Below, piece by piece: positions 16,129 through 51,944 of a stretch of 64,000 nucleotides of DNA. Source of the stretch: Dehalococcoidales bacterium (GTDB lineage Bacteria; Chloroflexota; Dehalococcoidia; Dehalococcoidales; Fen-1064); contig CP070842.1 of the NCBI GenBank assembly GCA_020342155.1, positions 555,930 to 619,929 of the forward strand, given 5' to 3'. The position numbers were made by a program, and so were the translations under genes. A model generated the notes under the pieces. It did not search any database, was not told the origin of the DNA, and saw only the letters and a program-made list of their open reading frames with translations. Every line of letters starts with the position of its first letter. Position 1 is the stretch's first letter.

Positions 16129-17777
16129 CAATACTTAAAGAATACAAACGCATAACCGTTGCTGAGAACTGTCATGGTTGCTTCGCCTGTGAAGTGGCCT
16201 GCAAGCAGGAGCATAGCCTGCCGGTAGGTCCCCGATGGATAAGGGTATATCCCGATATGAGAGAAGTTGGCGGTCAGTGGCGACTCAGCTACTTTGTCAC
16301 CGAGTGCGGGCGTGCCGCACCTGCTCCGTGTCAGCTTGCCTGCCCCGCCGGACTGAATGCCTGGCACTACGTCAGTCTTGCTTCGCAGGGCAAATTCAAG
16401 GAAGCCCTTGAGGTGATAAGGAAGACAACGCCTTTTGCCGGAGTTCTGGGTCGTGTCTGTACCCGTCCCTGTGAACTGGATTGTGAGCGCGGGAAGGTCG
16501 ATGTACCGGTGGCGATTCGTGCTCTAAAGCGCTTCCTGGCTGACCACGAAATGCAATCAGGCAGAGAGAAAGCAACTCCCGTGAAGCAGACCAAGGACAG
16601 CCAAGTAGCTATCATCGGCTCTGGTCCGACCGGTTTGTCCTGCGCCTACGACCTCATCCGGCAGGGGTATCCGGTTACCGTGTTCGAGACTGACGAAAGG
16701 CCCGGCGGCCAATTACGCTACGGAATTCCAGAAAACAGGCTACCAAAACAAATAGTGGATGATGAGATTGGTTACATCGAGGAACTGGGAGTAGAGATAA
16801 AGACAAACACCCCAATTAAAGACTTGTCGGGAGTTTTAAGTCAGGAATATCAAGCCATCTTTCTGGCAGCTGGTGCTCACCTGAGCCAGAAAATGGAAAT
16901 CCCCGGAGAAGATACCGAAGGGGTAACGTATGCCCTCGATTTTCTCAAACGCTTGAATTCCGGGCAGAAGGTTACTCTTGGGGAAAAGGTAGCTGTTATT
17001 GGCGGCGGTAATACAGCGGTCGACGCCGCCAGAGTGGCACTGCATATGGGAGTAAAGGAAGTCTCAATCATCTATCGTCGCTCCCGAGCCGAAATGCCGG
17101 CGATGGCTGCGGAAGTAGAGGAGGCGGAGCGGGAAGGTGTAAAAGTGGACTTCCTGGCAGTTCCAACTAGAATATTGAGTAAAGGTAACCAACTAACAGG
17201 TATTGAATGCGTTCGAATGGAGTTAGGCGAGTACGATGCTAGCGGTCGCCGGTCTCCAGTGCCTGTCAGAGGCTCTCAGTTCAACGTAGACATCGATAAT
17301 CTGCTTGTCGCTGTTAGTGAGTCGGTAGACAAGGCAATGCTGCCTGAAGGCCTAAAATCGACTGAACGGGGGACTGTTCATGTAAATCCCCACACTTTAC
17401 AGACAAACGTGGTTGGTGTGTTTGCTGGCGGTGATGTCGTCACCGGCCCGAGGGATGTTGTTGGGGCGATTGCCGCAGGTAAAGAAGCCGCCGTCTCCAT
17501 TGACCGTTACCTCAGTGGAATGGACTTAAGGGAGGACAGATCAACCACAGCTAGAGTATTGCGTGAGGTAACAAAGGGAGACAGCATCAGGACAGTTACC
17601 GCCTTGATTGATGAAAAAAAGGCCATTGCTGAAGCCAAGCGCTGCCTGAATTGCGGCGTGTGCGCCGAAACACTCGAAAACGGGTTACAGACGGCTTGTG
17701 TCAATGCCTGCCCCAGTCATTGTATTTACTATCGGGATATCTGGGAAATCACACCCAAAACAGGCCCATATCTGTAG
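16092..17777 (+). CDS. GltD-like NAD(P)H-dependent FAD/Fe-S oxidoreductase with N- and C-terminal ferredoxin motifs
   Basis: CHGCFACEVACK, GltD-like CxxxC clusters, IIGSGPTGLSCA and VIGGGNTAVDAAR dinucleotide folds. GTG start overlaps the upstream gene by 37 nt, preceded by GAGGG 7 nt upstream; no other in-frame start codon before the first Cys motif. Confidence 0.8.
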   Translation: MQNIPGYGRGGITILKEYKRITVAENCHGCFACEVACKQEHSLPVGPRWIRVYPDMREVGGQWRLSYFVTECGRAAPAPCQLACPAGLNAWHYVSLASQGKFKEALEVIRKTTPFAGVLGRVCTRPCELDCERGKVDVPVAIRALKRFLADHEMQSGREKATPVKQTKDSQVAIIGSGPTGLSCAYDLIRQGYPVTVFETDERPGGQLRYGIPENRLPKQIVDDEIGYIEELGVEIKTNTPIKDLSGVLSQEYQAIFLAAGAHLSQKMEIPGEDTEGVTYALDFLKRLNSGQKVTLGEKVAVIGGGNTAVDAARVALHMGVKEVSIIYRRSRAEMPAMAAEVEEAEREGVKVDFLAVPTRILSKGNQLTGIECVRMELGEYDASGRRSPVPVRGSQFNVDIDNLLVAVSESVDKAMLPEGLKSTERGTVHVNPHTLQTNVVGVFAGGDVVTGPRDVVGAIAAGKEAAVSIDRYLSGMDLREDRSTTARVLREVTKGDSIRTVTALIDEKKAIAEAKRCLNCGVCAETLENGLQTACVNACPSHCIYYRDIWEITPKTGPYL

Positions 17778-21347: not shown

Positions 21348-22826
21348 TCAGGCACTGACCGGCAGGTAGACGGTGAAGGTAGAGCCTTTCCCTACTTCGC
21401 TTTCAACCTCTATCCTGCCGCCGTGGCGCTCGATAATACCGTGAGCTACGGATAGCCCCAGGCCCACCCCCCTGACTTCTTTCTTGGTATGGAAAAAGGG
21501 AGTGAACAACTCATCCATGTTCTCAGGGGCTATACCACATCCGGTATCCCGAAAGCTCACACGGATATCACCATCCTCATCCAGTGAGACGCTAACAGTA
21601 AGTTTGCCTCCTTCAGACATCGCCTCGATAGCATTGGCTGCCAGATTGACGAATACCTGTCGGAGCTGTTTGGAATCGGCCATTATGACCGGTAGCGGAG
21701 TTATCTCTTCTCTCGATACCTTAATACCCTTTATCTGGGCCTGGTGGTCAACCATCGACACGACCTGAGCAATAATGCTATTCACTTCCACTGGCTGTAA
21801 CACTGGCTCTGTCTGGGAGGCAAAATCAAGGAGGCTATGTACCAGCACAGAACAGTATGTGACAGCCTCTTCAATCTTTAGCAGGCTGGTGATGGTCTCA
21901 TCTTTATTAAACGATCCACGTTCCATTTTCTTACTGAGCAATTTGGTATACGTCAAGGCTCCAGCTAATGGATTGTTTATTTCATGGGCTATGGCAGACG
22001 ACAATTGACCAAGCGCATCCATCTTTTCGGTCTGGACTAACTGCCTCTGGGTACTTCGTAGTTGCTCGATGTAGCTATTCAGTTCTTCATTCAGTGACAG
22101 CAACTCCTCATAAGTAAGCCTTCTGGGAGTAATTGCTTGTGTCTCTTTTTGCGAGTCTATTGCCAGGGAATCCCGTCGGCTAGCCAGTTCAGCCAGCCTG
22201 CGCTGGATTGTGTCTTCGACCGTTTGCCCGAATTCACAGGTGGCACACTGAAAACCGTGGGTGCAGAGTCGATATGAGATAATACCCTCGGCGGCATAGT
22301 GGCAAAGCCCACTATTATCAGGAGGGTTATTGATTGTCCCTAGTGCTGTATCAGACTCTGTTATGCTCTCCTGTGTTATCTTCTCATGCATCATCCGGTC
22401 AAATTTACAGGTAATGCAATCGTGGTTACGTGTGCAGATTTGATGGGATACTACACCGAGCTTCATCCAGACACACTCTTCAGGCTTCACCCCACCACTG
22501 GCAGTTTCAGGATCAGCTTCTGACTTGGCCAACTCGTCTTTCGTTCTCTGTAGCCAGATACGTGTTTCGATATTACCGGGAGCAATTTTAAGAATGGCTT
22601 CGAATTCATCTTGAGCCTCTTGATAACGCCCCGTTTCAAAGTGGGCCTTACCCTGCTCATGGTGGGCCCGGATATTTTTTGGCACCATGGCTATGACCTG
22701 CTCATCAGACAGTTCGACTGTAGCCGTATTTTCAGCCGTTTCCTCGTCCATCACCTTATCTTCCCCTGTGGTCACAGCTTTCTTTCTCTCCACCTTAATT
22801 CTACTGTATTGATTATCAACCGCCAT
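21348..22826 (-). CDS. Sensor histidine kinase: TPR-like helix pair + 2x Cx12Cx5Cx2C module + HisKA + HATPase_c
   Basis: H-box SSAIAHEINNPL with N/G boxes in the C-terminus. Cys modules at aa 118-140 and 175-197. Confidence 0.85.
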   Translation of the reverse strand: MAVDNQYSRIKVERKKAVTTGEDKVMDEETAENTATVELSDEQVIAMVPKNIRAHHEQGKAHFETGRYQEAQDEFEAILKIAPGNIETRIWLQRTKDELAKSEADPETASGGVKPEECVWMKLGVVSHQICTRNHDCITCKFDRMMHEKITQESITESDTALGTINNPPDNSGLCHYAAEGIISYRLCTHGFQCATCEFGQTVEDTIQRRLAELASRRDSLAIDSQKETQAITPRRLTYEELLSLNEELNSYIEQLRSTQRQLVQTEKMDALGQLSSAIAHEINNPLAGALTYTKLLSKKMERGSFNKDETITSLLKIEEAVTYCSVLVHSLLDFASQTEPVLQPVEVNSIIAQVVSMVDHQAQIKGIKVSREEITPLPVIMADSKQLRQVFVNLAANAIEAMSEGGKLTVSVSLDEDGDIRVSFRDTGCGIAPENMDELFTPFFHTKKEVRGVGLGLSVAHGIIERHGGRIEVESEVGKGSTFTVYLPVSA

Positions 22827-23082
22827 CTGATATGCAGCTTATTATGGGCTACCTGCCATGCCTAATTAGAAAACTGTTTGACTAGGCATACTCTACAAAC
22901 AGATACGCCGAGATTACACTCGTAAGTGCATGCTTTGAGAGAGAAGAGAATACCTGAAGACTAATAAAAATACCAGAGGTCTTACAGTTAGAAAGGATGA
23001 CAAATCAAATCAGGTAGGCAGAATATATACAGATACTATACGCAGCACCCGCAATTGAATCATGCACACGGAGCAATAAAGA

Positions 23083-23742
23083 TTACGGCAGGTCTTTCAG
23101 AGTGAGCCAGCCTTTTCTAAACCCGAATAATATTGCTTCAGTACGTGAAGCTACTTCGAGCTTATTGAAAATACTCCCCAGATGGGTCTGAACGACATTC
23201 AAACAAAGGACGAGGCGCTCTGCAATATCATTGTTACTTACACCTTTAGCAACTAATTTCAGCACCTCTACCTCGCGCTCGTTGAGCGGTTCGGTTCCCG
23301 GGACTCCGGCTGGGGTCGGAGATATCAGATGCTCTATAACTCGACGGGCGACTACGGGGTGAAGTACTGCCTCGCCGGCGTACACTGCCCGAATAGCATC
23401 AATCAGTTCATAGATTTTCAGACCCTTCAGCAAGTAGCCAGCTGCTCCCGCTTCTAAGAGGGCAAAAATGTACTGGTCGTAATCATAAGCGGTGAGTACC
23501 AGTACGGCTATGGATGGCTGCAGCTCCTTTATCCTTTTCGTGGCTTCTATGCCATTGAGCTTGGGCATATGGACATCCATTATGACCACATCTGGCTTCA
23601 GCTCCGTGGCTAGCCTGACAGCCTCTTCACCATCACCGGCTTCACCAACTACTTCCATATCTTCTTCACGCTGCACCGACGCACGAGTCAATTCCCGTAC
23701 CATAACGTGGTCTTCGGCCAGTAAAACCCTGATAGTATACAT
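23083..23742 (-). CDS. NarL/LuxR-family response regulator
   Basis: REC (LLAEDH...DVVIMDVHMPKLNG) plus C-terminal LuxR HTH (LNEREVEVLKLVAKGVSNNDIAERL). Confidence 0.9.
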   Translation of the reverse strand: MYTIRVLLAEDHVMVRELTRASVQREEDMEVVGEAGDGEEAVRLATELKPDVVIMDVHMPKLNGIEATKRIKELQPSIAVLVLTAYDYDQYIFALLEAGAAGYLLKGLKIYELIDAIRAVYAGEAVLHPVVARRVIEHLISPTPAGVPGTEPLNEREVEVLKLVAKGVSNNDIAERLVLCLNVVQTHLGSIFNKLEVASRTEAILFGFRKGWLTLKDLP

Positions 23743-23822
23743 TACATTCCCAAATTTACAGTTAGCCTACCGTCGTTATCAAGCGTAAAGCAAGGGAAGC
23801 CATACCCATTTGTATGAGTATA

Positions 23823-24824
23823 CTACGTAGAAGCACCCTCCTCGATCAAGGCGTAGTGGGGTGGGAGCGCCCCGGTAGGACAAATAGCAAAGCACTCTTT
23901 ACAGTCAGCGCATTCTTTGCTGGCTATCTCTGGGAAAAACATGACCTCCCGTTCCGTTCCTCTACCAATAAAGCCTATGGCGTTTTTACCCTTCACCTCA
24001 GCACAGTAACGCACGCATAAACCACATAGAATACAGAAATTCGGTTCTACTTCGAACTTGGTTTCACTTGCCCCGCTTAGCTCGTAATTTCCTTTCGACT
24101 CCAACCCGGATATACCGTATCTCATTCCGTAATTCACCAGTGGTTGGACACCAGGGGCCCGAGCCCACATCAACTCCAACAGCATTTTACGGATTTTAAC
24201 TACCTGTTCCGATTCTGTCTTGACTATGAGTCCATCCTCAACAATGTAGACGCATGAAGTAACCAAACGCGATCTTTGCCCTCTGATTATCTCCACTATG
24301 CACAACCGACAGGCACCATAAGGTGACAGTTTCTCATGGTGACAGAGGGTAGGAATGTCAATTCCAATACTCTGTGCCGCCTCCAGAATGGTCGCCCCTT
24401 GTCGGACCTCAACCTCTCTGTCATCGATAACACAGGTAACGGTCTCCGGTCTTATCTCAACCTGGACCGGCCCCAGAGTCTGGCTAACCAGTTTCTCCAG
24501 ATCATTAAGGTCAAAGGGCTTGGGCAGATAATCAATAACCCCCTCTTTCATCGCCTCTACCGCTGTCTGGACAGAAGGGTAAGCAGTAATAATAATGCCA
24601 TTAAGCTGTGGCTGTTTCGCCCTGGCCTTCCTTAGTACCTCAAGCCCATCTGCTCCCGGCAACCTCAGGTCGAGGATGAGAAGTCCATAGTCCTGCTCCT
24701 CGATTGCTTTCAGCGCCTCGTCCCCTTGCGTGGCACTTTCCACCTGATAACCACCATCGGTTAGCCAGTCCTGGAGCGACTCTCTCATAATCGCTTCGTC
24801 TTCTACTATCAGAATCGGTTTCAT
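23823..24824 (-). CDS. REC domain fused to a NuoG/HydA-N-terminal-like [2Fe-2S] domain plus 2x[4Fe-4S] ferredoxin domain
   Basis: MKPILIVEDE...DLRLPGADG receiver; Cx10Cx2Cx15C (CHHEKLSPYGACRLC...C) 2Fe-2S pattern; CILCGLCVRYC and CADCKECFAICP motifs. GAGGAGG RBS. Confidence 0.8.
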   Translation of the reverse strand: MKPILIVEDEAIMRESLQDWLTDGGYQVESATQGDEALKAIEEQDYGLLILDLRLPGADGLEVLRKARAKQPQLNGIIITAYPSVQTAVEAMKEGVIDYLPKPFDLNDLEKLVSQTLGPVQVEIRPETVTCVIDDREVEVRQGATILEAAQSIGIDIPTLCHHEKLSPYGACRLCIVEIIRGQRSRLVTSCVYIVEDGLIVKTESEQVVKIRKMLLELMWARAPGVQPLVNYGMRYGISGLESKGNYELSGASETKFEVEPNFCILCGLCVRYCAEVKGKNAIGFIGRGTEREVMFFPEIASKECADCKECFAICPTGALPPHYALIEEGAST

Positions 24825-24853
24825 TCGTCTACCTCCTCTTATTTCTCCTCAGC

Positions 24854-26764
24854 TTATCCACGCACGACTTCAGTGCCTTGTGCAACAAATTCTGGTACTT
24901 CCACACCGGAAAGTACAGTAATGGCGCCAAAACGAGCGGGACAAACCTCAAGACAAGTCCCGCACTTGGTGCATTTCTCCTGGTCTATTATATGGATTAG
25001 ATTTTTCCCACCGTCGATAGCCCCTACCGGGCAATTCCTCAGACAAATCATGCACGCCTGACACTTCTCCGGCTCTATCCAGTAATTTATCAACGCCTTA
25101 CAGACACCGGCCGGGCACTGCTTCTTCATAATATGAGCTTCATACTCATCCCGGAAGTACCTGAGCGTGCTCAGCACTGGATTGCAGGCCGTCTGTCCCA
25201 GTGCGCAAAGTGCCGAGTCTCCAAGCACCTCCGGTATTTCGTCCAGCAGCTTAAAGTCTTCTTCGCTGCTTTCCCCTTCGCAAATTCTATTCAGCACCTT
25301 AAGCATCTGGTATATCCCCTCACGGCAGGGCAAACACTTACCACAAGACTCCCCGGCGAGGAAGTTAATAAAATACCTGGCCACATCCACCATGCAGGTG
25401 TCCTCATCCATGACGATCATGCCGCCCGAGCCCATCATAGAACCTACTTTAGTGAGCTCATCGAAATCTACGGGGAGGTTAAGGAACTTATCCGGGATAA
25501 CTCCCCCCGAGGGGCCACCGGTCTGGACTGCCTTGAACTTCTTTCCATCAGGAATTCCACCGCCGATATCGTAAATCACCTCTCGGAGTGTCATTCCCAT
25601 AGGCACTTCAACCAGCCCGGTATTTTTCACCTTGCCAACCAGGGAGAAAATCTTTGTGCCCTTACTGCCTTCGGTCCCGATGTTGGTAAACCATTCAGCA
25701 CCGTTGTTGATAATGAGAGGTACATTGGCCCAGGTCTCCACATTATTCAGATTACTGGGTCTATCCCAGATACCGCTAACCGCAGTGCGGATATATTTCG
25801 GTCTGGGTTCACCAACCCTGCCCTCTATTGCTGTCATTAAAGCACTGGATTCACCCGATACAAAGGCACCAGCACCTCGGTGTATTTTAACGTCAAAATT
25901 AAAACCGGAGCCGAGAATATCCGAACCCAGAAGACCGAGTTCTCGTGCTTGCTCTAGAGCAATATTTAGATTCCCCACAGCTAAGGGATATTCCTGCCGC
26001 ACATAGATGAACCCCTCATGTGAGCCAATAGCGTAGGCACCGATAATCAGGCCTTCCAGTACGCTGTGAGGATTACCCTCAAGAAGGCTCCTGTCCATAT
26101 AGGCCCCAGGGTCGCCTTCGTCAGCATTTACGATAACGTATTTTCTCTCGCCTGGTGCGTCGCGGGTGGTCTCCCACTTTCTTCCAGCCGGGAAACCGCC
26201 ACCCCCTCTGCCCCTTAGATTAGACTCTTTTACCTCTTCCATAACCTCTTCAGGTGTCATCTCTAAAAGGGCTTTTGCCAGGGCGGCATAGCCACCAAGC
26301 GTAATGTAGTCCTCTATATTCGTAGGGTCGATGAGCCTGTTATTGCCAAAAATAACCCGGCTCTGGTGTTTATAGAAGGGTATCTCGCTCTCATGCGCGA
26401 TCTTTTGACCGTCATCATCCTCATACAGCAGACGGTCAACTACCTTCTTTTCGACTAATGTTGTAGAAACAATCTCAGGGACATCATCCGACCTTACTCT
26501 CAGATAGCATATTTCTTCAGGAAAGATGACTACCAAGGTACCCTTCTCACAGAAACCATGGCACCCCGTCCGGCGGATATCCACCTTCTCTTGAAGTCCG
26601 TTACTCTGGATATTGGCAACAAAGGCCTCGGCAACCTTTTCACTGCCGTAAGCATGACATCCCGTACCTGAACAAATGGTTACACATGGTTTGTTTGGGT
26701 CTCTCTTGGCTAGTATTTCCTGTCTTAAGTTCTCCAGGTCAGCGGCTGAGTTTAATCTGCCCAT
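24854..26764 (-). CDS. NuoF/HydB-like NAD(H)-binding FMN Fe-S subunit (N-terminal thioredoxin-like 2Fe-2S, C-terminal 2x[4Fe-4S])
   Basis: GRGGGGFPAGRKW (FMN), GAGAFVSGESSAL (NADH), ESCGKCLPCREG (N3 cluster), CQACMICLRNCP and CTKCGTCLEVCP. Confidence 0.9.
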   Translation of the reverse strand: MGRLNSAADLENLRQEILAKRDPNKPCVTICSGTGCHAYGSEKVAEAFVANIQSNGLQEKVDIRRTGCHGFCEKGTLVVIFPEEICYLRVRSDDVPEIVSTTLVEKKVVDRLLYEDDDGQKIAHESEIPFYKHQSRVIFGNNRLIDPTNIEDYITLGGYAALAKALLEMTPEEVMEEVKESNLRGRGGGGFPAGRKWETTRDAPGERKYVIVNADEGDPGAYMDRSLLEGNPHSVLEGLIIGAYAIGSHEGFIYVRQEYPLAVGNLNIALEQARELGLLGSDILGSGFNFDVKIHRGAGAFVSGESSALMTAIEGRVGEPRPKYIRTAVSGIWDRPSNLNNVETWANVPLIINNGAEWFTNIGTEGSKGTKIFSLVGKVKNTGLVEVPMGMTLREVIYDIGGGIPDGKKFKAVQTGGPSGGVIPDKFLNLPVDFDELTKVGSMMGSGGMIVMDEDTCMVDVARYFINFLAGESCGKCLPCREGIYQMLKVLNRICEGESSEEDFKLLDEIPEVLGDSALCALGQTACNPVLSTLRYFRDEYEAHIMKKQCPAGVCKALINYWIEPEKCQACMICLRNCPVGAIDGGKNLIHIIDQEKCTKCGTCLEVCPARFGAITVLSGVEVPEFVAQGTEVVRG

Positions 26765-26835
26765 GACTCTCTCCTCTTTTTCAATCTCACTTAATAGACA
26801 CTCCGAACAGCGTTTGCTTTCCTATTCTCCATAGC

Positions 26836-27303
26836 CTATTCGCAAGTATCAGCAATCTCATCAAGTTCTTTCCTGGAAGGACTGCTATGATATTCCTCAT
26901 CGACTACCATCACCGGTCCCAGGGCACAGCAGCCAAGACAGTTTACTGTTTCCAGACTGAAGCGCATGTCATCCGAGGTCTCACCCGGTTTAATCTCTAA
27001 TTTCTCTGTTACTCTATCCAGGAGGCGAGGTGCACCACGCACCTGGCAGGCAGTCCCTAAACAGACCGATACCGAGTGTCGTCCTCTTGGTGTCAGACTG
27101 AAGGCTTTATAGAAAGTAGCTATATGATAGATTTGGCTCAAGGGAATTCCGAGCCTCTGGCTGGCCTGCATAAGGGCATCCCTGGGCAACCAGCGGTTTT
27201 CGTGCTGAATGTCGAGAAGCACCTGAATCAGAGAAGACTTGTCACCCTTATATTTGTCTATGATTTCATCGGTTTGAGCAACATCCTGGACCATCTTATT
27301 CAT
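26836..27303 (-). CDS. NuoE/HydC-like [2Fe-2S] subunit
   Basis: CLGTACQVRG...CLGCCALGPV pattern; 155 aa. Confidence 0.9.
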   Translation of the reverse strand: MNKMVQDVAQTDEIIDKYKGDKSSLIQVLLDIQHENRWLPRDALMQASQRLGIPLSQIYHIATFYKAFSLTPRGRHSVSVCLGTACQVRGAPRLLDRVTEKLEIKPGETSDDMRFSLETVNCLGCCALGPVMVVDEEYHSSPSRKELDEIADTCE

Positions 27304-27309
27304 ACCTCC

Positions 27310-28371
27310 TTAGTTTTCACCCCAGTAAGACCACCACCAACTAAGCTCTTTTTTATGTGAAGCCTCTTGTCGGGCGGCCAGCTCGACTGCTCTTTTTGCT
27401 AGCTTCTGCTGGAGGGCGTCGTCCATCATTTGTCCGAATTCACAGGTCTCGCACTGGTAGATACGGGAGCAGAGGCGGTAGGACACGTCATTCTTAAGAG
27501 CATAGCGACACAACCTCTGACTGCCGGGTAACGCCAGTAGTTTTTCCATGGCTGCATCAAGTTCAGAGGAGTCACCGCTAGCCAACTTGTCCTGCATCTC
27601 CTGGTCAAACTCACATGTCATGCAGTCGTAGTTGTTAGTGCAGACGCGATAAGACACCATCCCCATGCTCATCCAGACGCATTGTTTAGGTTTTTCTTCC
27701 CCTGGAGCCAATGCTTCAGTCTCAGGTTCGGCCAGCGTCCTTTTTATCTTCTGAATCCAGACCCTGTTCTCGATATTAGCCGGAGCAACTTCCAGGATAG
27801 CCTGAAATACCCTTAATGCCTCTATGTATCTGCCAGCTTCGAAGAGAGTCTTACCCTGCCTGAGGTGGCCTGGAACCTCCTCAGGAATAACAGCGATAAC
27901 CTCCTCGACCCGAACCTCCTCGACAACAACCTCCTCAACCTTGACCTCTTCTACCTTAACTGGCTCGTCTATAATCTCCTTAGTACCTGCCCGCGGTGTT
28001 ATTTCAATCTGTACCGGCCCGAGAGTCTCCCTGATTAGCTTCTCCATTTCATTAAGGTCAAAAGGCTTGGGCATATAATCAACAGCCCCTATTTTCATCG
28101 CCTCTACGGCTGTCTCAACTGAAGGATAGGCAGTAATGATGATTCCCTTGAGTTGGGGCCTTCTCTCTTTAGCTTCCCGCAATACCTCAAGCCCGTCTTT
28201 CCCCGGCAGCCTCAGGTCAAGAACGACAACACCGAAGTCATGTTCCTCGATAGTTTTCAGTGCTTCACTCCCCTCCTCTGCAGTTTCTACCTGATAGCCC
28301 CCATCCTTGAGCCAGTCTTTTAAAGACTCTCTCATAATTGCTTCGTCTTCTACTATCAATATCGGTTTCAT
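27310..28371 (-). CDS. REC domain + (K/V/R)VEEV repeat linker + TPR-like helix pair + 2x Cx12Cx5Cx2C module
   Basis: The receiver is nearly identical to that of 23823..24824. Cys modules at aa 238-260 and 295-317 (numbered from ORF start 28392). Start set at MKPILIVEDE (ATG 28369-28371, GGGGG 7 nt upstream). Confidence 0.75.
   Translation of the reverse strand: MKPILIVEDEAIMRESLKDWLKDGGYQVETAEEGSEALKTIEEHDFGVVVLDLRLPGKDGLEVLREAKERRPQLKGIIITAYPSVETAVEAMKIGAVDYMPKPFDLNEMEKLIRETLGPVQIEITPRAGTKEIIDEPVKVEEVKVEEVVVEEVRVEEVIAVIPEEVPGHLRQGKTLFEAGRYIEALRVFQAILEVAPANIENRVWIQKIKRTLAEPETEALAPGEEKPKQCVWMSMGMVSYRVCTNNYDCMTCEFDQEMQDKLASGDSSELDAAMEKLLALPGSQRLCRYALKNDVSYRLCSRIYQCETCEFGQMMDDALQQKLAKRAVELAARQEASHKKELSWWWSYWGEN
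27898..27957 (-). repeat. 4 x 15-nt in-frame tandem repeat encoding KVEEV-KVEEV-VVEEV-RVEEV
   Basis: Plus strand reads aacctcctcgac-type units with 15-nt periodicity. Confidence 0.8.
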
Positions 28372-28449
28372 CTTCTCGCCCCCTTCACTCATTTTTTAAC
28401 TCCTTAAGACAACTAGCTCGTCTATCTGATAACTCCCACACTATTATCA

Positions 28450-28466
28450 TGCAATTTTCTCGCCAA
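28450..28466 (-). promoter_or_regulatory. Sigma-54 (-24/-12) promoter: TTGGCGAGAAAATTGCA
   Basis: The reverse complement of 28450..28466 matches TGGCAC-N5-TTGCW at GG-N10-GC with TGGC and TTGCA intact (2 mismatches, AC to GA). It lies ~80 nt upstream of the REC/Cys-rich gene, with sigma-54 and a sigma-54 activator encoded immediately upstream. Confidence 0.65.
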
Positions 28467-28471
28467 AGAAT

Positions 28472-28500
28472 AAGGCTGCCCTGATATTTAGGGCAGCCTT
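28472..28500 (-). terminator. Perfect 11-bp inverted repeat (AAGGCTGCCCT-N7-AGGGCAGCCTT): terminator of the ntrC-like gene, or an activator site
   Basis: GC-rich hairpin 42 nt after the stop of 28542..29903, followed on the minus strand by AUUCUUU. It lies only 5 nt upstream of the -24 element. Confidence 0.5.
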
Positions 28501-28541
28501 CTCTACGATTCAAACAGATACTATCTATGTAAAGGAATCAT

Positions 28542-29903
28542 TCAGCGAGTGCCTATTTTTTTTACATCCAATCCATACGCCTTAATTTTATTATAGAGAG
28601 TCATTCTCGCGATTCCTAAGACCGCGGCAGCTTCACTGTAGTTGCCGTTGGTCTCAGTGAGTACATGCAGAATGTGGTTCTTCTCAACCTCATCAAGACT
28701 TTTGCCTGCCAGTGTTACCCTTACTAACTGCGAGTTTTCCTGAACCAGATCTCCCACCTCGATACAGGCATTTTTAGATAAAATGACCGCTCGCTCAATT
28801 GCGTTTTCTAGCTCTCTAACATTGCCAGGCCACTCATATTTTAGGAGAAAATCGGTAGCCTTTGGAGAATATTCGGTGATTTCCTTCTGGTTCTCCGTGG
28901 CAAACTTCTCCAGGAAGTACTGGGCTAAGAGAGGTATATCTTCTTTTCTCTCTCTTAATGGAGGCAGGTCAATCGAAACTACGTTCAAACGATAATAAAG
29001 GTCTTCACGAAATGTTTCATCGGTCACGGCCCTCTTAATATCTTTATTTGTCGCTGAAACAACCCTGACATCAGTCTTAACCAGTTCGTTACCACCAACC
29101 CTGGTGAATTCCTTCTCTTCCAGTACTCTCAACAGGTGACCCTGAATATTAGCACTCATGTCACCAATCTCATCCAGAAAGAGAGTGCCTTTATTAGCGA
29201 CCTCGAACTTACCCTTTTTTTGCGCATAAGCTCCGGTGAAGGACCCCTTTTCATGGCCAAACAGTTCACTCTCTAGAAGACTCTCAGGCAAGGCAACGCA
29301 ATTAACGGCGACAAATGGCTTACTCCGACGATGACTCTGGGAGTGAATAGAGCGGGCCACAAGTTCCTTGCCGGTGCCACTCTCACCTGTAATCAATACA
29401 GTAGCATTGCTCCTGGCTACAACCTTAATTATCTCAACTACCTGTTGCATCTTGGGACTTTTAGCGGTGATATTTTCAAATTCGTAACGCTCCTTTAGCT
29501 TCTTGTGCAAGGAAATGTTCTCCTCAACCAATCCCTGATGCTCAACCAATTTCTCAAGTAGAATCGCCAACCTTTCTGGGCAGAAAGGCTTCTCGATATA
29601 GTCATAGGCACCTTCTCTCATAGCAGAAATGGCGGTTGGGATGCTCGCGAAAGCGGTAATGATTATCACGTTAACAACCGGGTTCATCTCCTTTGCTTTC
29701 TTCATAAACTCTATCCCATCCATACCCGGCATCACGAGATCACTAATGATAATCCCTATCTGCTCCTCTTCCAGTATCTCCAGGGCTTGAGAGCCGCTCT
29801 CCGCAGTAAACACATGATAACCGGCATCATTTAGCCAGTCACAAAGCGATTCGCGAACAATAGCTTCATCGTCAACAACGAGGATATTAGCTTCTCTACT
29901 CAT
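28542..29903 (-). CDS. NtrC-family sigma-54-dependent response regulator (REC + AAA+ + Fis-type HTH)
   Basis: GESGTGKE Walker A, GSFTGA (GAFTGA-type sigma-54 contact loop), C-terminal HTH ...AAAVLGIARMTLYNKIK. Confidence 0.9.
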   Translation of the reverse strand: MSREANILVVDDEAIVRESLCDWLNDAGYHVFTAESGSQALEILEEEQIGIIISDLVMPGMDGIEFMKKAKEMNPVVNVIIITAFASIPTAISAMREGAYDYIEKPFCPERLAILLEKLVEHQGLVEENISLHKKLKERYEFENITAKSPKMQQVVEIIKVVARSNATVLITGESGTGKELVARSIHSQSHRRSKPFVAVNCVALPESLLESELFGHEKGSFTGAYAQKKGKFEVANKGTLFLDEIGDMSANIQGHLLRVLEEKEFTRVGGNELVKTDVRVVSATNKDIKRAVTDETFREDLYYRLNVVSIDLPPLRERKEDIPLLAQYFLEKFATENQKEITEYSPKATDFLLKYEWPGNVRELENAIERAVILSKNACIEVGDLVQENSQLVRVTLAGKSLDEVEKNHILHVLTETNGNYSEAAAVLGIARMTLYNKIKAYGLDVKKIGTR

Positions 29904-31836
29904 GGTAAGCCTCCAAGCGGACAGTAAAGGTAGTTCCCTCCCCCTCTTTACTATCTACCTCAATTCTTCCCTGATGTCGTTGGATAATTCCATAGGCCAC
30001 AGCTAGTCCTAAACCTACCCCTTTACCCTTCTCTTTTGTGGTAAAGAAGGGAGTAAAGAGCTTGTGCAGGTTTTCTTGAGAGATACCTGACCCTGTATCC
30101 TGAACCTCTATCTTAATCTGGTCGTCATTAACTACTGAGGTACGGAGGACTAACTCACCCCCCTTTGACATTGCTTGGATGGCATTCATGATAAGGTTTG
30201 TAAGAACCTGATGAAGCTGGTCAAAATCAGCCATGACTTTAGGCAAGTCAGGGCTATATTCTTTTCTCACCTCAACATTCTGCAGACCGGCCTGGTGACC
30301 AATGATGTTAAAAGCTCGCTCGATAACCTGGTTTATGTCTACCAGCCTGAGGGTTGGTGTTGACTGGCGAGCAAAATCCAAGAGATTACGAATTAACCTG
30401 GAACTACGGGTAAGCTCTGAGTCCATTTTTGTCAGGTAGTCCAGCGATTTTTCCTTACTGATGGTATTATTAGATATGTTTTTCTCCAGCAACTTGGTAT
30501 AGACAAGGACACCGGCCAGAGGATTATTGACCTCGTGAGCAATAGAGGCTGCCATCTGGCCTAAGGAGGTTAGCTTCTCGGCCTGGATAAGGTCTTCCTG
30601 AGTAGCCTCCAGTTTCTTGAGTAAATAAGGCCAACACATATTAATCTCTGCCAATTCCTGGCCGATGGCAACAGCCAACTCTCTACAGGAAGCGTAACCA
30701 CAAGCTCCACAATCCATCCGGTAACTGGGACTAACCCTGCCAATTTGCTCAAGGAGACCTCTGACTTCTTCTTCGCTGGGAGTTGGTAGGTAGATACTGC
30801 GCCCAGTAAATTTACGGTTGAGGTCAATCGTAGCGTAACGCTCGATGTCCTTCTCAGTCTGGGTGGGGTCTACATTACTCCGAGCGTATCTAGCAATAAG
30901 CTCCTTTCGACTAAAACCGCTTAGTTCATTATCAATAAACGGTCCATCAATACACCCGTGACAAAAATACAGATTAGCAAATCTAGCAGTGATGTCACCT
31001 TGAGCAAATTCCCCAAGAATCTTGACAACATATTCCCTACCGTGAACACTCATGACATCATTCTTCATTATGTCATCAGTTAATCCCATAACCTTAAGCA
31101 GGCCGCCTGATATGGCAAATAGCCGACCAAGCTTGGATATAGGGCCAGCAAACTGCTCGTCCTGCTCACTGCTCGGGACAATTCCTTTATCAGCAAACAT
31201 TTCCTTTAATTCCGTAAAGGTTAGCACAGCATCCACCATACCATCAGCATTCTTATCGGCGATTTCTGCTTTCTTAGCAACACACGGACCAATGTAGACC
31301 ACCTTAGCCTGCGTGTTGTGATATTGCTTGATTATTCTACCCATGGCAATTGTAGGTGAAACAATGGGTGCCAGATTACTGAGTAGTGAGGGATGGTACT
31401 TCTCGATGTAGGTTACTACCGCCGGGCAGTTAGATGAGATTATAGGCCCGTCTTTAACTTCGTCTAGTAGTTGGATGTATTCCCCACTGATTAGCTCGGC
31501 ACCGAAGGCTGCCTCCATCACATTGCTGAATCCCAGCTTCTTAAGAGAGGTTACAAATTGCCCAGGCTTACAATTGAGCAAGGCAGCTGGGAAGGAAGAG
31601 GAAACTACAGCTACCACATCAGGGTGGTTAGCCAATAGCTGCCGAACTAATTCGACATCGCTCTCCGCTTGCTTTGCCCCGGTAACACAGACACGTATAC
31701 AGTTGCCACAATCAATACAACGTTCCTTTATTACCTCAGCCAACCCTTCTCTTATCTTGATTGCCTTAGTCGGACAGTGACGTACACAGGCGTAGCACCC
31801 CTGACACTTCTCTCGGTCGGTATAGACAACGCTCAT
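29896..31836 (-). CDS. Histidine kinase with N-terminal 2x[4Fe-4S] + [FeFe]-hydrogenase H-domain-like sensor + Cx2Cx4Cx16C motif
   Basis: CQGCYACVRHCP and CIDCGNCIRVC; H-cluster-type motifs SSNCPAV, IGPCVAKKAE, FCHGCIDGP; CGACGYASC-x16-C; then SIAHEVNNPL H-box and an HATPase_c domain. Confidence 0.8.
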   Translation of the reverse strand: MSVVYTDREKCQGCYACVRHCPTKAIKIREGLAEVIKERCIDCGNCIRVCVTGAKQAESDVELVRQLLANHPDVVAVVSSSFPAALLNCKPGQFVTSLKKLGFSNVMEAAFGAELISGEYIQLLDEVKDGPIISSNCPAVVTYIEKYHPSLLSNLAPIVSPTIAMGRIIKQYHNTQAKVVYIGPCVAKKAEIADKNADGMVDAVLTFTELKEMFADKGIVPSSEQDEQFAGPISKLGRLFAISGGLLKVMGLTDDIMKNDVMSVHGREYVVKILGEFAQGDITARFANLYFCHGCIDGPFIDNELSGFSRKELIARYARSNVDPTQTEKDIERYATIDLNRKFTGRSIYLPTPSEEEVRGLLEQIGRVSPSYRMDCGACGYASCRELAVAIGQELAEINMCWPYLLKKLEATQEDLIQAEKLTSLGQMAASIAHEVNNPLAGVLVYTKLLEKNISNNTISKEKSLDYLTKMDSELTRSSRLIRNLLDFARQSTPTLRLVDINQVIERAFNIIGHQAGLQNVEVRKEYSPDLPKVMADFDQLHQVLTNLIMNAIQAMSKGGELVLRTSVVNDDQIKIEVQDTGSGISQENLHKLFTPFFTTKEKGKGVGLGLAVAYGIIQRHQGRIEVDSKEGEGTTFTVRLEAYHE

Positions 31837-32951
31837 TAGTCCCCCTCACTTTCATACCGAACATACTTACTCTTGCACCGAGAAGCAGGCAATCTCAGCT
31901 CTTTCCTCAGGTCGGCCACCGAGCGACGAGAGATGGTCACACCGAATTTTTCCTGCAGCTCAGTCTTTATCGCGTCATCTGAGGAAAGTCCTTCCTCGGT
32001 TTCAAGAAGTTGTTTGATTAGTTCTTTCTTAAACTTCTTCGATCTGGGGAAAAAGTGCTTAAGGGGAACCTCTGTACCCAAAGGTGTCTCTAGGCTTTTC
32101 CTGTTGATGGCACGACTAACAGAGCTGGGAGCAAGCCCAATTTTCTCAGCCAGTTCTTTCTGACTGAAGGGTAATAGAGATTTAGGATCACCACACTCCA
32201 GATATAACGCTTGCTTATCAACAATACCCTGCAGTATTTGACTTACCGTGTCCTTGCAGCTATTAACTGATTCTAGTCTCTTGAATAGCTGCTTAGCTTC
32301 ACTGACCTCAGTCTCAGTGAAAACCCCTCTTACCCTCAACTCCTCAAAGCTTCCGTAATCAATCCGATATCTTCCCCGGGCAAAGGGGGCGGATAAGTAT
32401 CCAATAGTAAAGCTATCCCCCCGTCTCTCTACCGAGGCAATTTTAGAATAGCGAATTTGCTCTGAACTGAAAGCGGAGGGATGATAGAACTCACTTAGAA
32501 TAGAGAAGTCATTGACAAGGTCATTTATCTCTCGGACTTCTGAAATACTCAGACCACATTCCTCAGCAATCTCTTCCAGGACCATCCCTGACTCAGGAAA
32601 CAAGAAGTAACGCTTGAATTTCTCCAGTCCCAACTTCTCTACTAGACGAACGATTCGCGCCTTGTTTTCTAGAAGGGATTCCACGTCAAGAGAGCCTTTG
32701 TCGGCTGTGGTTTCTTCTCTAAGCTGAAAATATTGGGATGAAATATCGGTCTTGGGAACTCTCTGGTAATGGATGAGTTTCTCTTCCTGATAAAGCCTCA
32801 CAAAGAGAGGAGTTTTTTCTAGCTCGATGACAAGCTGAATGAAGGTTTGCTCAGGCATTTCCAGCAACTTGGCCTGTTCTATGAGGAAGACTTGTTTTAA
32901 TTCCTGCCTGATTTGTTGGGATTGTCTTTGCTCTGTTATCATACTAGGCAT
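31836..32951 (-). CDS. rpoN: Short (371 aa) sigma-54 (RpoN) family sigma factor
   Basis: Gln-rich region I (EQRQSQQIRQELKQ...LLEMPEQTF..ELEKTPLF), HTH (LAPSSVSRAINRKSLETPLGTEVPLKHFF), and an RpoN-box-like GVTISRRSVADLRKELRLP. Overlaps the kinase start by 1 nt. Confidence 0.8.
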   Translation of the reverse strand: MPSMITEQRQSQQIRQELKQVFLIEQAKLLEMPEQTFIQLVIELEKTPLFVRLYQEEKLIHYQRVPKTDISSQYFQLREETTADKGSLDVESLLENKARIVRLVEKLGLEKFKRYFLFPESGMVLEEIAEECGLSISEVREINDLVNDFSILSEFYHPSAFSSEQIRYSKIASVERRGDSFTIGYLSAPFARGRYRIDYGSFEELRVRGVFTETEVSEAKQLFKRLESVNSCKDTVSQILQGIVDKQALYLECGDPKSLLPFSQKELAEKIGLAPSSVSRAINRKSLETPLGTEVPLKHFFPRSKKFKKELIKQLLETEEGLSSDDAIKTELQEKFGVTISRRSVADLRKELRLPASRCKSKYVRYESEGD

Positions 32952-32960: not shown

Positions 32961-32989
32961 ATTTTACTACTCCTGTGATGTATTGTCAA
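32961..32989 (-). promoter_or_regulatory. Sigma-70 promoter TTGACA-N17-TAAAAT, only 9 nt upstream of the rpoN-like ATG (near-leaderless)
   Basis: The reverse complement gives TTGACA (32984..32989), a 17-nt spacer and TAAAAT (32961..32966). ATG at 32949..32951, no SD sequence. Confidence 0.45.
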
Positions 32990-35366: not shown

Positions 35367-36221
35367 ATGAGTGATAAAGCTATCCTTTTCAACACCACCA
35401 GATGCATTGCGTGTCGCGGTTGCCAGGTGGCCTGCAAGCAGTGGAATGAGACAGACGAGGTGATTCCCACTGAACAGAACAGCGTACGATCAGTAAACCG
35501 TGGCAGTTATGAAAATCCCCCGGACCTCTCACCAAAGACTTGGATGACGATTAAATTCATTGAGAAACCGCAGGGCGATTCCATAGAGTGGTTTTTCAAT
35601 CGTCGTAGCTGTATGCATTGTACTGAGGCTGCCTGTGTCGAGGTGTGCCCCTCTGGGGCTCTTTATCACAACGAAGATGGGTTTGTCACCTATGATAAAG
35701 ATAAATGTACAGGCTGTGGTTATTGTGAGCAATACTGCCCGTTTGATGTTCCTCGATTAGACACAAATATTGTCACAGGCGTGGGTAAAATGGACAAGTG
35801 TACTCTCTGCACGACCCCAAGCCTCAATCGTCTCTCGGCAGGTGAAGAACCTGCGTGTGTCAATACCTGTCCCACTCACGCTCTAGTCTTCGGTGATAGG
35901 GACGAGCTTATCTCCGAAGCTAAAACACTGGTCACCGGTCTGCAGACAACCGGCTCTAGGGTCTATCCCAAGGCAACGCTTTACGGAGAACAGGAACTCG
36001 GTGGCCTCCACGTTCTTTATGTTCTGACAGACTCGCCTGGAGTCTACGGCTTGCCAGAGAATCCTCAGTTCCCTATCGCGGCCACACTCCAGAGAGATGT
36101 CTTCCGTCCCCTTACTAAGGTGGTGTGGCTCATGGTCGCTGGTGGCCTGGCACTGAACGTCTTGATTGCCTGGTTCAGGCAGAGGCAACTTAGTGAGGAG
36201 AACTCTCATGGAAATGATTGA
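35367..36221 (+). CDS. fdnH: FdnH/HybA-like 4x[4Fe-4S] electron-transfer subunit with C-terminal TM anchor
   Basis: CIACRGCQVACKQWN, CMHCTEAACVEVCP, CTGCGYCEQYCP, CTLC...CVNTCP; C-terminal hydrophobic helix. Confidence 0.85.
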   Translation: MSDKAILFNTTRCIACRGCQVACKQWNETDEVIPTEQNSVRSVNRGSYENPPDLSPKTWMTIKFIEKPQGDSIEWFFNRRSCMHCTEAACVEVCPSGALYHNEDGFVTYDKDKCTGCGYCEQYCPFDVPRLDTNIVTGVGKMDKCTLCTTPSLNRLSAGEEPACVNTCPTHALVFGDRDELISEAKTLVTGLQTTGSRVYPKATLYGEQELGGLHVLYVLTDSPGVYGLPENPQFPIAATLQRDVFRPLTKVVWLMVAGGLALNVLIAWFRQRQLSEENSHGND

Positions 36222-40768: not shown

Positions 40769-40796
40769 AGCATCTCCAGTGTATCTACGTATGAAG

Positions 40797-43467: not shown

Positions 43468-43468
43468 G

Positions 43469-46400: not shown

Positions 46401-46483
46401 CCTTTCGTGTCAAAGGTGAGCACCGCTGCGGCACCGATTCCCGCCCCCGAGAACTTCAGAAAGTCTCTACGGTTTAGTCTCAC
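43469..46483 (-). CDS. fdnG: Tat-exported, selenocysteine-containing formate-dehydrogenase-type molybdopterin subunit (FdnG-like); in-frame TGA at 45920..45922
   Basis: ORFs 45920..46483 and 43469..45898 are in the same frame (3015 nt). RRDFLK Tat motif and CCYCSVGCG [4Fe-4S] motif. Junction reads EHCARL-TGA-HSSTVASLAESFGRGAMTNHW, the conserved Sec/Cys active-site context. A hairpin follows the TGA. Confidence 0.85.
45876..45922 (-). promoter_or_regulatory. UGA(Sec) codon plus putative SECIS hairpin
   Basis: mRNA reads UGA-CACU-CCUCUACC-G-UCGCC-AGUUU-GGCGG-AGAGUUUU-GGUAGAGG. The 8-bp lower stem and 5-bp upper stem start 4 and 13 nt after the UGA. Confidence 0.55.
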
Positions 46484-50364: not shown

Positions 50365-50376
50365 GGAAGGTCACCG

Positions 50377-51843: not shown

Positions 51844-51856
51844 GTATTAAAACTTC

Positions 51857-51902: not shown

Positions 51903-51944
51903 GAGTCCCGGACAATAGGCGACTACTGCGGTCTGATAGTCCCC

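Follow-up and report, generated by a model that had tools for sequence, protein, structure and literature searches.

A receiver-fused BfuA in a Type-2 Bfu-like core, and its predicted control by a hydrogenase-like sensor kinase, in a Dehalococcoidales bacterium

Bfu and HydABC enzymes set the NADH/ferredoxin/H2 balance in anaerobes, and a published classification defines Type 2 Bfu enzymes as those in which the BfuA subunit has the cluster domains A1, A2 and A4 only and extra subunits feed electrons in via A4 (PMC9304861). Short BfuA subunits accompany BfuB clade 45, which holds Wor-, Bam-, F420- and FdhFeFe-Bfu together with the Chloroflexi Por-Bfu and Mbh-Bfu sub-clades (PMC9304861); the WorABCSL structure traces the electron path as A4-A2-A1-B1, with A3 missing (PMC12318220). 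Here we describe three genes at 23823-27303 on the minus strand of a 64,000-nt stretch of a Dehalococcoidales bacterium (contig CP070842.1; hereafter the window), which encode a NuoE-like BfuC, a NuoF-like BfuB and a short BfuA fused to a receiver (REC) domain. We find that this trio is very probably a Bfu-type core with a Type-2 BfuA, and that it is very likely the sigma-54- and NtrC-dependent output operon of a hydrogenase-like histidine kinase encoded upstream.

The nearest described enzymes, WorABCSL of Acetomicrobium mobile (9MQX), HytD of the FdhFeFe-Bfu (Hyt) system and BamGHI of class II benzoyl-CoA reductase, share with the window the same extra BfuB domains and a NuoE-like BfuC, and their BfuA proteins (WorA, HytD, BamI) are of ~200-250 aa with A1, A2 and A4 only, like the Fe-S part of our protein. 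They differ in that their operons include third-substrate subunits (WorSL, HytA/FdhA, BamB-F), whereas the REC-BfuA operon has none, and in that neither their BfuA nor their BfuC carries a signalling domain. Among the loci examined, the nearest REC-less relative outside Dehalococcoidia is that of Desulfosarcina (L059), with Bam-like HdrD/HdrA/MvhD genes. Group A3 HydABC has the same BfuB/BfuC core, and genes of group C1/C3 sensory hydrogenases adjoin A3 clusters (PMC11406978; HydDB table), so that a hydrogenase-like sensor is encoded nearby there too; the HydABC A subunit, however, has an H-domain and that of the window has none, and, compared with HydS, the sensor of the window shares one polypeptide with a histidine kinase, has NtrC and a private sigma-54-like factor as partners, and belongs to a system that bears receivers on enzyme subunits. 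The HoxEFU diaphorase is likewise a NuoE/NuoF/short-NuoG-like trio, and its name has been given by JGI to many homologues. HoxU is the best NCBIfam match of the Fe-S part at 134 bits, far under the cut-off of 333, and no hoxYH genes are adjacent, on which grounds we rejected this assignment; the extra clusters of BfuB, typical of Bfu and unlike HoxF, and the REC fusion further distinguish the window.

On the regulatory side, HoxBC-HoxJ-HoxA of Cupriavidus necator and HupUV-HupT-HupR of Rhodobacter run from a hydrogenase-like sensor through a kinase to an NtrC-family regulator and hydrogenase operons, and the target operons of C. necator are sigma-54 dependent. As these systems are generally understood, the cassette of the window follows the same logic and may be viewed as a Type-2 Bfu core whose regulation resembles that by HoxJ/HoxA or HupT/HupR, with a group-C-like [FeFe] sensor. 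It differs in that this sensor is of the [FeFe] type and covalently fused to the kinase, and in that the targets include a Bfu core; we know of no counterpart to the enzyme-borne receivers in the Hox and Hup systems. For these receivers the closest likeness is Rv3143, an orphan receiver that binds NuoD and modulates mycobacterial complex I (PMC9274095). There, too, a CheY-like receiver meets an NADH dehydrogenase module by protein contact and not by DNA binding; Rv3143 is, however, free-standing and acts on respiratory complex I, whereas the receiver of the window is fused to a NuoG-like subunit (in relatives, also to the NuoE-like one) of a soluble module and has an obvious cognate kinase.

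Sensory hydrogenase genes beside Bfu clusters have thus been described already (PMC11406978). What is new is that Bfu subunits, and other NAD(P)H-linked subunits of enzymes associated with hydrogenases, carry receivers, together with a private, truncated-looking sigma-54-like factor and a strictly conserved promoter. Our literature searches found no description of a post-translational switch on Bfu/HydABC enzymes and nothing specific on sensory hydrogenase kinases of Dehalococcoidia.

The Bfu core and its receiver-fused subunit

The three ORFs are contiguous and lie exactly where an earlier note, made from the letters of the window, had placed a NuoE/NuoF/Fe-S trio (Table 1). BfuC is NuoE-like by its PF01257 match, and the positions of C81, C86, C122 and C126 provide the ligands of a single [2Fe-2S] cluster. 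BfuB combines a flavin mononucleotide (FMN)/NADH site with an N3-type [4Fe-4S] cluster (C474, C477, C480, C520) and both extra cluster domains, namely an N-terminal Trx-like [2Fe-2S] domain (C31, C36, C68, C72) and a C-terminal 2x[4Fe-4S] domain (Cys within 568-578 and 598-608); the NADH, FMN and Fe-S motif strings that the earlier note had listed, GRGGGGFPAGRKW, GAGAFVSGESSAL and ESCGKCLPCREG, are all present in its 636-aa translation. It aligns end to end with the B chains of bifurcating enzymes, namely NiFe-HydABCSL (7t2r_B, 802 bits), WorB (9mqx_B, 753 bits), 7q4v_B (726 bits), 8a6t_B (723 bits) and Thermotoga maritima HydB (7p5h_B, 638 bits).

The third protein is built as the same note had read it, a REC domain followed by a Cx10Cx2Cx15C [2Fe-2S] domain (C161-x10-C172-x2-C175-x15-C191) and two [4Fe-4S] motifs (C264/267/270/274 and C305/308/311/315), Pfam domains and cysteine spacings being in agreement. 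The closest solved structures of its Fe-S part are the N-terminus of HydA1 (8a6t_A, 9.3e-34) and the 247-aa WorA (9mqx_A, 1.9e-32). In agreement with the note, Pfam detects neither PF10588 (the His-ligated A3), nor Fe_hyd_lg_C, nor a molybdopterin domain in its 333 residues, and the polypeptide stops after the second [4Fe-4S] motif, without A5. A1, A2 and A4 are thus kept while A3 and A5 are missing, and because the published definition of Type 2 BfuA fits, the Fe-S part belongs to an established class and is not an orphan. A complex I reading was rejected on the lack of an N5 His-ligated cluster, of a molybdopterin-like domain and of nuo membrane genes in the cluster, and assignment as a group A3 HydA was rejected on the lack of Fe_hyd_lg_C. 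The further statement that the module has no catalytic subunit is true inside 23823-27303 and breaks down 5 kb upstream, where an H-domain is encoded in fusion with the kinase.

The receiver is invisible in the NCBI record of an identical protein (P0002; likewise P0075), because the annotated start is internal: the record describes a 242-aa "(2Fe-2S)-binding protein", and translation from there would truncate the receiver near residue 92, with most of it lost. Taken at face value this record would make the fusion an annotation artefact, the REC and Fe-S parts being separate genes or the true start lying internally, an explanation to which we give almost no credence. The ORF is uninterrupted, Pfam covers positions 1-110 of the 111-position receiver model (E=1e-29), and we regard the fusion as real because the full-length ATG at 24824 has a strong AGGAGG ribosome-binding site 7 nt upstream and the same full-length fusion recurs in ~75 homologue clusters.

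The domain keeps the full CheY-like set of an acidic pocket, Asp, Thr/Ser, aromatic switch and Lys, and its best structural matches are the NtrC1 receivers 1zy2 and 1ny5. Across 29 REC-fused homologues (57-73% identity by BLASTP, 61-79% in the alignment), E8, D52, T80, Y99, K102-P103 and all twelve cluster cysteines are invariant, and D9 is kept in at least 90%; the phospho-acceptor Asp, on which the earlier note had let its reading stand or fall, is therefore intact. The architecture itself is rare. When 1.84 billion cluster representatives were searched exhaustively with HMMER, three REC + BfuA clusters at 50% identity emerged (P0241, P0243 at 51% and P0277 at 39% identity), and a scan of one genome per species placed two REC-fused loci among its best 80, both from Dehalococcoidia (L008, L009). 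NCBIfam has no family above cut-off for REC-BfuA, for the H-domain kinase or for the sigma-54-like protein, homologues of REC-BfuA bear generic or misleading names ("bidirectional [NiFe] hydrogenase diaphorase subunit", "CheY-like/ferredoxin"), and we found no paper on REC-fused NuoE/F/G or Bfu subunits or on a regulatory Bfu, all of which shows that REC joined to a NuoG N-terminus is not a common annotated family of known function, the other point on which the note had staked its reading. Orthologues without REC are abundant (~207 aa, 75-79% identical over the Fe-S part), and NuoE-NuoF-BfuA trios of 53-69% identity are found in Desulfobacterota, Bacillota, Actinomycetota and others; in Desulfosarcina variabilis (L059) the trio follows HdrD-, HdrA- and MvhD-like genes in a Bam-like arrangement.

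Hydrogenase-like kinase, promoter and receiver clade

The kinase is resolved by Pfam into N-terminal 2x[4Fe-4S], an [FeFe]-hydrogenase H-domain, a PF04060 Fe-S motif (Cx2Cx4Cx16C), HisKA and HATPase, and it carries the feature set of group C sensory [FeFe] hydrogenases. Alignment of the H-domain to HydA1 structures in the PDB shows motif L1 changed from TSCCP to SSNCP and L2 from MPCxxKxxE to GPCVAKKAE; in L1 the Cys that ligates the cluster is retained and N, T, S or H stands in place of the proton-relay Cys, a replacement known from sensory [FeFe] hydrogenases (HydS). The H-cluster cysteines C137, C185, C292 and C295, the CN-binding K188, the phospho-His H434, the eight ferredoxin cysteines and C379, C384 and C401 of PF04060 are invariant in 22 kinase homologues (C376 in at least 90%). 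Such kinases make up a large family in Dehalococcoidia, where the 120 best-scoring clusters are full-length at 65-93% identity. On these sequence features the kinase likely senses H2.

Between the kinase and the trio lie the gene for an NtrC-type activator, which NCBIfam matches as AtoC/NtrC-like under the equivalog cut-offs, and then a hairpin, a sigma-54 promoter and a gene for a protein of REC, TPR and Cys-rich parts (REC-TPR-Cys), so that the output operon begins one gene before the trio; the nuoE ORF starts 6 nt after REC-TPR-Cys. The promoter, TGGCGAGAAAATTGCA, is the sole exact match to TGGC-N7-TTGCW in the 64 kb, TGGCAAGAAAATTGC being the pattern form for sigma-54 sites of this type. 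The same 16-mer, usually as TGGCAAGAAAATTGCA, occupies the equivalent site in L001/2, L004, L005, L008, L009 and L012, with near variants in L010, L013 and L018. When 80 metagenomic loci were retrieved with the H-domain kinase as query, the promoter was found at most 400 nt past the NtrC stop codon in 36 of the 39 that contain NtrC, and after the kinase gene in none of the 13 that do not. A GC-rich hairpin and T-run directly precede it in all aligned relatives. Upstream of the whole cluster, a sigma-70-like promoter may precede the regulatory operon, a weak suggestion from a consensus match (11/12) whose region-wide count equals the expectation from shuffled sequence. The most economical reading is of two transcription units, a constitutive one for the sigma-54-like factor, kinase and NtrC, and a sigma-54-dependent one that would start at REC-TPR-Cys and hold the Bfu genes. 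Promoter and AAA+ activator, two parts of a sigma-54 regulon, are both recognisable in full; of the sigma factor, the DNA-binding half alone is. A TTTACA-containing repeat lies past the NtrC stop (28515-28540, minus strand; ATTCCTTTACA in the window), is duplicated in L008 and forms a perfect palindrome, TGTAAAGAAATTGGTCA...TGACCAATTTCTTTACA, at ~11900-11960 of L013; the NtrC-type activator may bind this repeat as its enhancer.

This arrangement is conserved as a cassette. The order sigma-54-like factor, H-domain kinase, NtrC, REC-X, NuoE, NuoF, REC-BfuA recurs in every REC-BfuA locus with enough flanking sequence (L001/L002, L004, L005, L008, L009), the cassette proteins being 49-93% identical and the flanking genes unrelated. 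In L001, L004 and L005, the more remote relatives, a receiver is fused to NuoE (295-305 aa), and two of the three Bfu subunits then bear receivers; in the window and in L008/L088 the receiver before NuoE carries the TPR and Cys-rich module instead, and NuoE is separate. The same cassette with REC-TPR-Cys and a REC-less BfuA is present in three other Dehalococcoidia loci (L010, L012, L018), and in L013, also REC-less, the genes for REC-TPR-Cys, NtrC, kinase and sigma-54-like factor lie downstream on the opposite strand. REC-TPR-Cys is the most constant partner of the H-domain kinase, even where NtrC and the sigma-54-like factor are missing.

Elsewhere other payloads follow the kinase cassette. 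In L097, L101 and L166 the small and large subunits of a [NiFe] hydrogenase are preceded by an 801-aa REC-fused diaphorase (REC + Fer4_22 + FAD_binding_6 + NAD_binding_1 + DHODB_Fe-S); these [NiFe] loci are group-3-like (L097 9406-13834; L101; L166 from 13830), with stand-alone 126-aa and 203-aa REC proteins alongside. The payload of L141 is hypF, hypD and hypE, and that of L095 (11529-13766) is a 745-aa REC + GltD/NfnB/HdrA-like flavoprotein whose receiver is 77% identical to that of BfuA. Further REC-GltD-like copies precede the cassette in L098, L114 and L140 and are found past NtrC in L139, the copy of L114 preceding MvhD and Mvh-type [NiFe] genes; MvhD with Mvh-type [NiFe] subunits is found upstream of the cassette in L107, L114 and L166, and directly 3' of the REC-less BfuA in L012. 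The cassette is a mobile regulatory unit for hydrogen-linked redox genes, with Bfu as one payload, and H2 sensing gains independent support because hydrogenase and hyp genes recur around it.

The receivers of the cassette form one clade. That of BfuA is 75% identical to the receiver of REC-TPR-Cys and 47% to that of NtrC in the window, compared with 23-27% to the two NarL-type receivers (27% for the one at 23083-23742). The alpha-1 helix, which largely determines kinase-regulator specificity, is near-identical in the BfuA, TPR-Cys and NtrC receivers (AI[MV]RESLxDWLxD[GA]GY), and the fusions of the clade, to BfuA, NuoE, TPR-Cys and GltD-like proteins, share the tail TLGPVQ[VI]EI[RK]P past alpha-5 before a linker whose length varies; receivers of this clade further occur on Usp domains and as REC-REC proteins. 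The cassettes of the V1 loci contain no kinase besides the H-domain kinase, and from this single kinase and the single receiver clade we infer that the pathway branches, with one kinase acting on both NtrC and the enzyme-borne receivers. The BfuA receiver is accordingly a probable substrate of the hydrogenase-like kinase.

Proposed control of the core and competing explanations

In the mechanism that we propose, BfuB would bind NAD(H) at its FMN, BfuC would hold its [2Fe-2S] cluster and REC-BfuA would serve as the wire, A1-A2-A4, between the core and a third redox partner whose gene lies apart. Bifurcating electron transfer among NAD(H), ferredoxin and a third substrate is predicted from Bfu membership, and our best guesses for the partner are a hydrogenase encoded elsewhere (Mvh-type [NiFe]) or the H-domain of the kinase itself, the sole co-encoded candidate at REC-BfuA loci. 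The [FeFe]-hydrogenase-like domain of the cytoplasmic kinase would report H2, or a redox state that equilibrates with H2, and the kinase would phosphorylate the NtrC-type activator, which with the dedicated sigma-54-like factor would fire the -24/-12 promoter before REC-TPR-Cys, nuoE, nuoF and REC-bfuA. The same kinase would phosphorylate D52 of BfuA, the receiver of REC-TPR-Cys and, in relatives, the receiver of BfuC, and this would switch complex assembly or electron flow. We infer the pairing of kinase and receivers, the gating of activity by phosphorylation and the identity of the signal as H2. Taken as a whole, we lean modestly towards an H2/redox two-component system that controls the synthesis of the Bfu core and, via the receivers, its activity or assembly. 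Of the two functions offered by the earlier note, a phosphorylation-gated oxidoreductase is the one that context favours, through the single cassette kinase and the shared receiver clade, with chances about even that phosphorylation gates assembly or electron flow and does not end in a phosphate sink alone; a redox-sensing complex is possible and less supported. That His-Asp phosphorylation acts on the bifurcating core directly, by clamping or releasing a mobile BfuC/BfuA or by docking the core onto the kinase, is a tentative and on balance doubtful proposal. Here a linker of varying length and receivers on two subunits speak more for a phosphorylation-driven association of receiver with receiver, or of receiver with kinase, than for a rigid switch inside one molecule.

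Several observations weigh against this account. The third-substrate subunits expected of a Type 2 enzyme are co-encoded neither in the operon, nor in the 64-kb window, nor at any REC-BfuA locus; tblastn found no [NiFe] subunits (Mvh-like or group-3-like) and no Hyp proteins in the window, and Pfam found no HydEFG among its larger ORFs. The AlphaFold2 model of REC-BfuA is confident for the REC and [2Fe-2S] domains only (predicted TM-score, pTM, 0.45), the 2x[4Fe-4S] domain having a per-residue confidence (pLDDT) below 50, and the linker between REC and Fe-S parts, short in our protein and variable in length among relatives, disfavours a fixed intramolecular switch. Motif L3 of the kinase is C-x2-C and not the canonical C-x3-C, and H-cluster binding has been doubted for some group C1 proteins (PMC11406978), so the signal could be redox and not H2. 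A second histidine kinase in the window could also feed these receivers. Finally, among 16 kinase loci with at least 6.5 kb of downstream sequence, Bfu genes follow in four, [NiFe] genes with the REC-diaphorase in two, hyp genes in one and a REC-GltD-like gene in one, while the other eight show no recognised target (REC-TPR-Cys, small REC proteins, then housekeeping genes), from which it follows that the kinase is independent of Bfu and its regulon variable.

The rival that we take most seriously is a split sensory HydABC. In this arrangement the receivers of BfuA and of BfuC or REC-TPR-Cys would dock on the DHp domain of the kinase, placing its 2x[4Fe-4S] and H-domain on A4; the H2/NAD(H)/ferredoxin poise would be read out as the redox state of the H-cluster and, through it, as kinase activity, and the Bfu core would re-oxidise and so reset the sensor. 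A Type-2 BfuA requires a partner at A4, and precedent exists in HytA, a split H-cluster subunit that works with the short BfuA HytD (PMC9304861); apart from Bfu, the conserved cassette has no redox protein other than the H-domain protein, which retains an N-terminal ferredoxin domain as HydA and HytA do. REC-BfuA loci, moreover, have no other hydrogenase nearby while the REC-less variants often have one, two receivers per complex would fit the two docking sites of a kinase dimer, and a published scheme depicts group C sensory hydrogenases as a "T subunit" of Bfu clusters (PMC11406978). Many kinase cassettes, however, lack any Bfu genes, so that the sensor would work alone, and the terminator that separates the kinase and Bfu transcription units would lead to unequal amounts; we judge the split enzyme unlikely. 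Somewhat less likely still is that the Bfu receivers act as a phosphate sink or feedback sensor, competing with NtrC for phosphoryl groups, possibly in a manner dependent on cluster redox state, and thereby damping or tuning their own induction; this corresponds to the redox-sensing complex of the earlier note. One kinase faces at least three receivers of one clade, the receiver-bearing genes stand under the NtrC/sigma-54 promoter in a negative-feedback topology, and stand-alone or short receivers of the clade pile up in these loci (126 aa, ~205-aa REC, REC-REC), such receivers being typical of branched or sink two-component architectures. A sink needs no fusion to an enzyme, yet the clade is found repeatedly on BfuA, BfuC, the [NiFe] diaphorase and GltD-like proteins, which points to enzyme control; the two roles can also coexist.

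An ordinary metabolic Bfu or NuoEFG-like module (for example Por-, Mbh- or NiFe-Bfu), with a vestigial or structural receiver and regulators that act on transcription only, would suit the REC-less orthologues, which at 60-79% identity are abundant in Dehalococcoidia and beyond and stand in metabolic contexts such as the Bam-like Hdr/MvhD genes of Desulfosarcina (L059) and an acyl-CoA dehydrogenase neighbourhood (L007), as it would the absence of REC from BfuA in three cassette loci (L010, L012, L018). A vestigial domain would not, however, be expected to keep its catalytic residues across 29 homologues and to be more conserved than the linker beside it, nor to belong to the same clade as the cassette receivers and to recur through an independent fusion to BfuC in relatives, and we consider this explanation very unlikely.

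If the proposed phosphorelay control of the Bfu core is correct, it would be the first example of a His-Asp phosphorelay that directly controls flavin-based electron bifurcation, and part of a wider, undescribed habit of Dehalococcoidia by which one receiver clade is fused to NAD(P)H-linked subunits of hydrogenase-associated enzymes; D52 of the receiver fusions offers a testable handle on on/off control of electron bifurcation by a phosphorelay. If docking is correct, the cell would build a split signalling HydABC that gauges the thermodynamic poise of H2, NAD(H) and ferredoxin. The cassette would give a putative group-C [FeFe] sensor targets that can be named, namely Bfu, [NiFe] hydrogenases and hyp genes, links that have so far been the missing piece for the function of sensory [FeFe] hydrogenases. 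It is also a compact, self-contained candidate for an H2-responsive switch, consisting of a private sigma-54-like factor, hydrogenase-like kinase, activator and 16-bp promoter, the last conserved across dozens of uncultured Dehalococcoidia.

Cassette components and other loci of the window

The cassette and its add-ons form a minus-strand cluster of ~12 kb, 21348-32951 (Table 1).

Table 1. Positions of genes, domains and signals of the cluster in the 64,000-nt window
Feature	Position	Strand	Size, domains and remarks
Sigma-70-like promoter	32961-32989	-	TTGACA-17-TAAAAT, 11/12; just upstream of the regulatory operon
Short sigma-54-like factor	31836-32951	-	371 aa; Q/L-rich N-terminus; Sigma54_DBD 1e-22; RpoN box SRRSVADLRKEL
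H-domain sensor histidine kinase	29896-31836	-	HydS-like, [FeFe] group-C-like (Pfam)
NtrC/AtoC-type enhancer-binding regulator	28542-29903	-	REC-AAA+-HTH_8; Sigma54_activat 4e-74, Response_reg 1e-30, HTH_8
Intrinsic terminator hairpin	28472-28500	-	11 bp stem, 7 GC, T-tract; placed to close the regulatory operon
Sigma-54 (-24/-12) promoter	28450-28465	-	TGGCGAGAAAATTGCA; predicted to drive REC-TPR-Cys, nuoE, nuoF, REC-bfuA
REC-TPR-Cys	27310-28392	-	REC + TPR + Cys-rich 2x(C-x12-C-x5-C-x2-C-E-F); first gene of the predicted sigma-54 operon
BfuC (NuoE/HydC-like)	26836-27303	-	155 aa; PF01257 Trx-like [2Fe-2S], E=5.5e-49 (Pfam)
BfuB (HydB-type NuoF-like flavoprotein)	24854-26764	-	636 aa; FMN/NADH motifs; Complex1_51K 6.9e-42, SLBB, NADH_4Fe-4S 1e-31 (Pfam)
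REC-BfuA	23823-24824	-	333 aa; Response_reg 1e-29, Fer2_4 1.7e-17, Fer4_Nqo3 1.2e-7 (Pfam)
REC of REC-BfuA	24471-24824	-	aa 1-118; D52 codon 24669-24671
[2Fe-2S] A1 domain of REC-BfuA	24210-24446	-	aa 127-205
2x[4Fe-4S] A2/A4 of REC-BfuA	23865-24053	-	within aa 258-320
NarL/LuxR-type response regulator	23083-23742	-	Pfam; add-on in the window, L008 and L088 only (tblastn)
Second histidine kinase	21348-22826	-	TPR + Cys-rich N-terminus, a homologue of the REC-TPR-Cys output region

The sigma-54-like gene leads the cassette in L001, L004, L005, L008, L009, L010, L012 and L018 and lies on the opposite strand in L013. The rpoN models of NCBIfam match its C-terminus alone, below cut-off, and PDB alignments to sigma-54 span residues 207-361; Pfam, NCBIfam and PDB searches detected no core-binding or activator-interacting domain. 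The protein may be a dedicated minimal sigma-54.

REC-TPR-Cys has 568 homologues, all uncharacterised, and the cysteines of its module are invariant. The module spans ~aa 235-325 of REC-TPR-Cys and ~aa 115-210 of the second histidine kinase; it belongs to no Pfam family, a weak zf-CHY match being the only one at E<=5, and the AlphaFold model of REC-TPR-Cys is poor over it. The second kinase is, by a tblastn match to the Cys-rich module, an add-on of the window, L008 and L088, and shares 44% identity with the H-domain kinase in the DHp region. The module may be a metal or Fe-S site that links both kinases. Half-versions of it are seen in ~205-aa REC proteins (L097 8310-8921; L110 14550-15188).

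Elsewhere in the window, a molybdopterin oxidoreductase at 43469-46483 (minus strand) is split into two ORFs by an in-frame TGA (45920-45922) in the context CARL-U-HSSTVASL, and is probably the selenocysteine-containing catalytic subunit of a formate dehydrogenase (FDH)-like complex iron-sulfur molybdoenzyme. It is followed by a Fer4_11 subunit and an NrfD membrane subunit (41486-43467) and by a NarL-type regulator with a GAF-HisKA_3 kinase (39098-41459); this cluster (41486-46483) gained no support as a partner of the core, as it has its own two-component pair and is missing from related loci. On the plus strand, 14011-17777 encodes a cytoplasmic FDH-like molybdopterin protein and, in an overlapping gene, an NAD(P)H oxidoreductase of GltD/NfnB-like type. 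The GltD-like gene has orthologues (mostly 53-61% identity) that adjoin the kinase cassette in ~20 related loci, often divergently, whereas the FDH-like gene does not recur; the pair was rejected as a third-substrate module, the FDH-like gene standing beside no other cassette. At 35367-36861 (plus strand) lie genes for an FdnH-like 4x[4Fe-4S] protein and a cytochrome b (Ni_hydr_CYTB); the 1.4 kb upstream contains no catalytic-subunit ORF of more than 81 aa. The region 49687-54898 (plus strand) holds tandem PAS-HisKA_3 kinases (50377-51843 and 53447-54898), each behind an ORF of 225-240 aa, and with these and the NarL/GAF-kinase pair at 39098-41459 the window is unusually rich in two-component systems.

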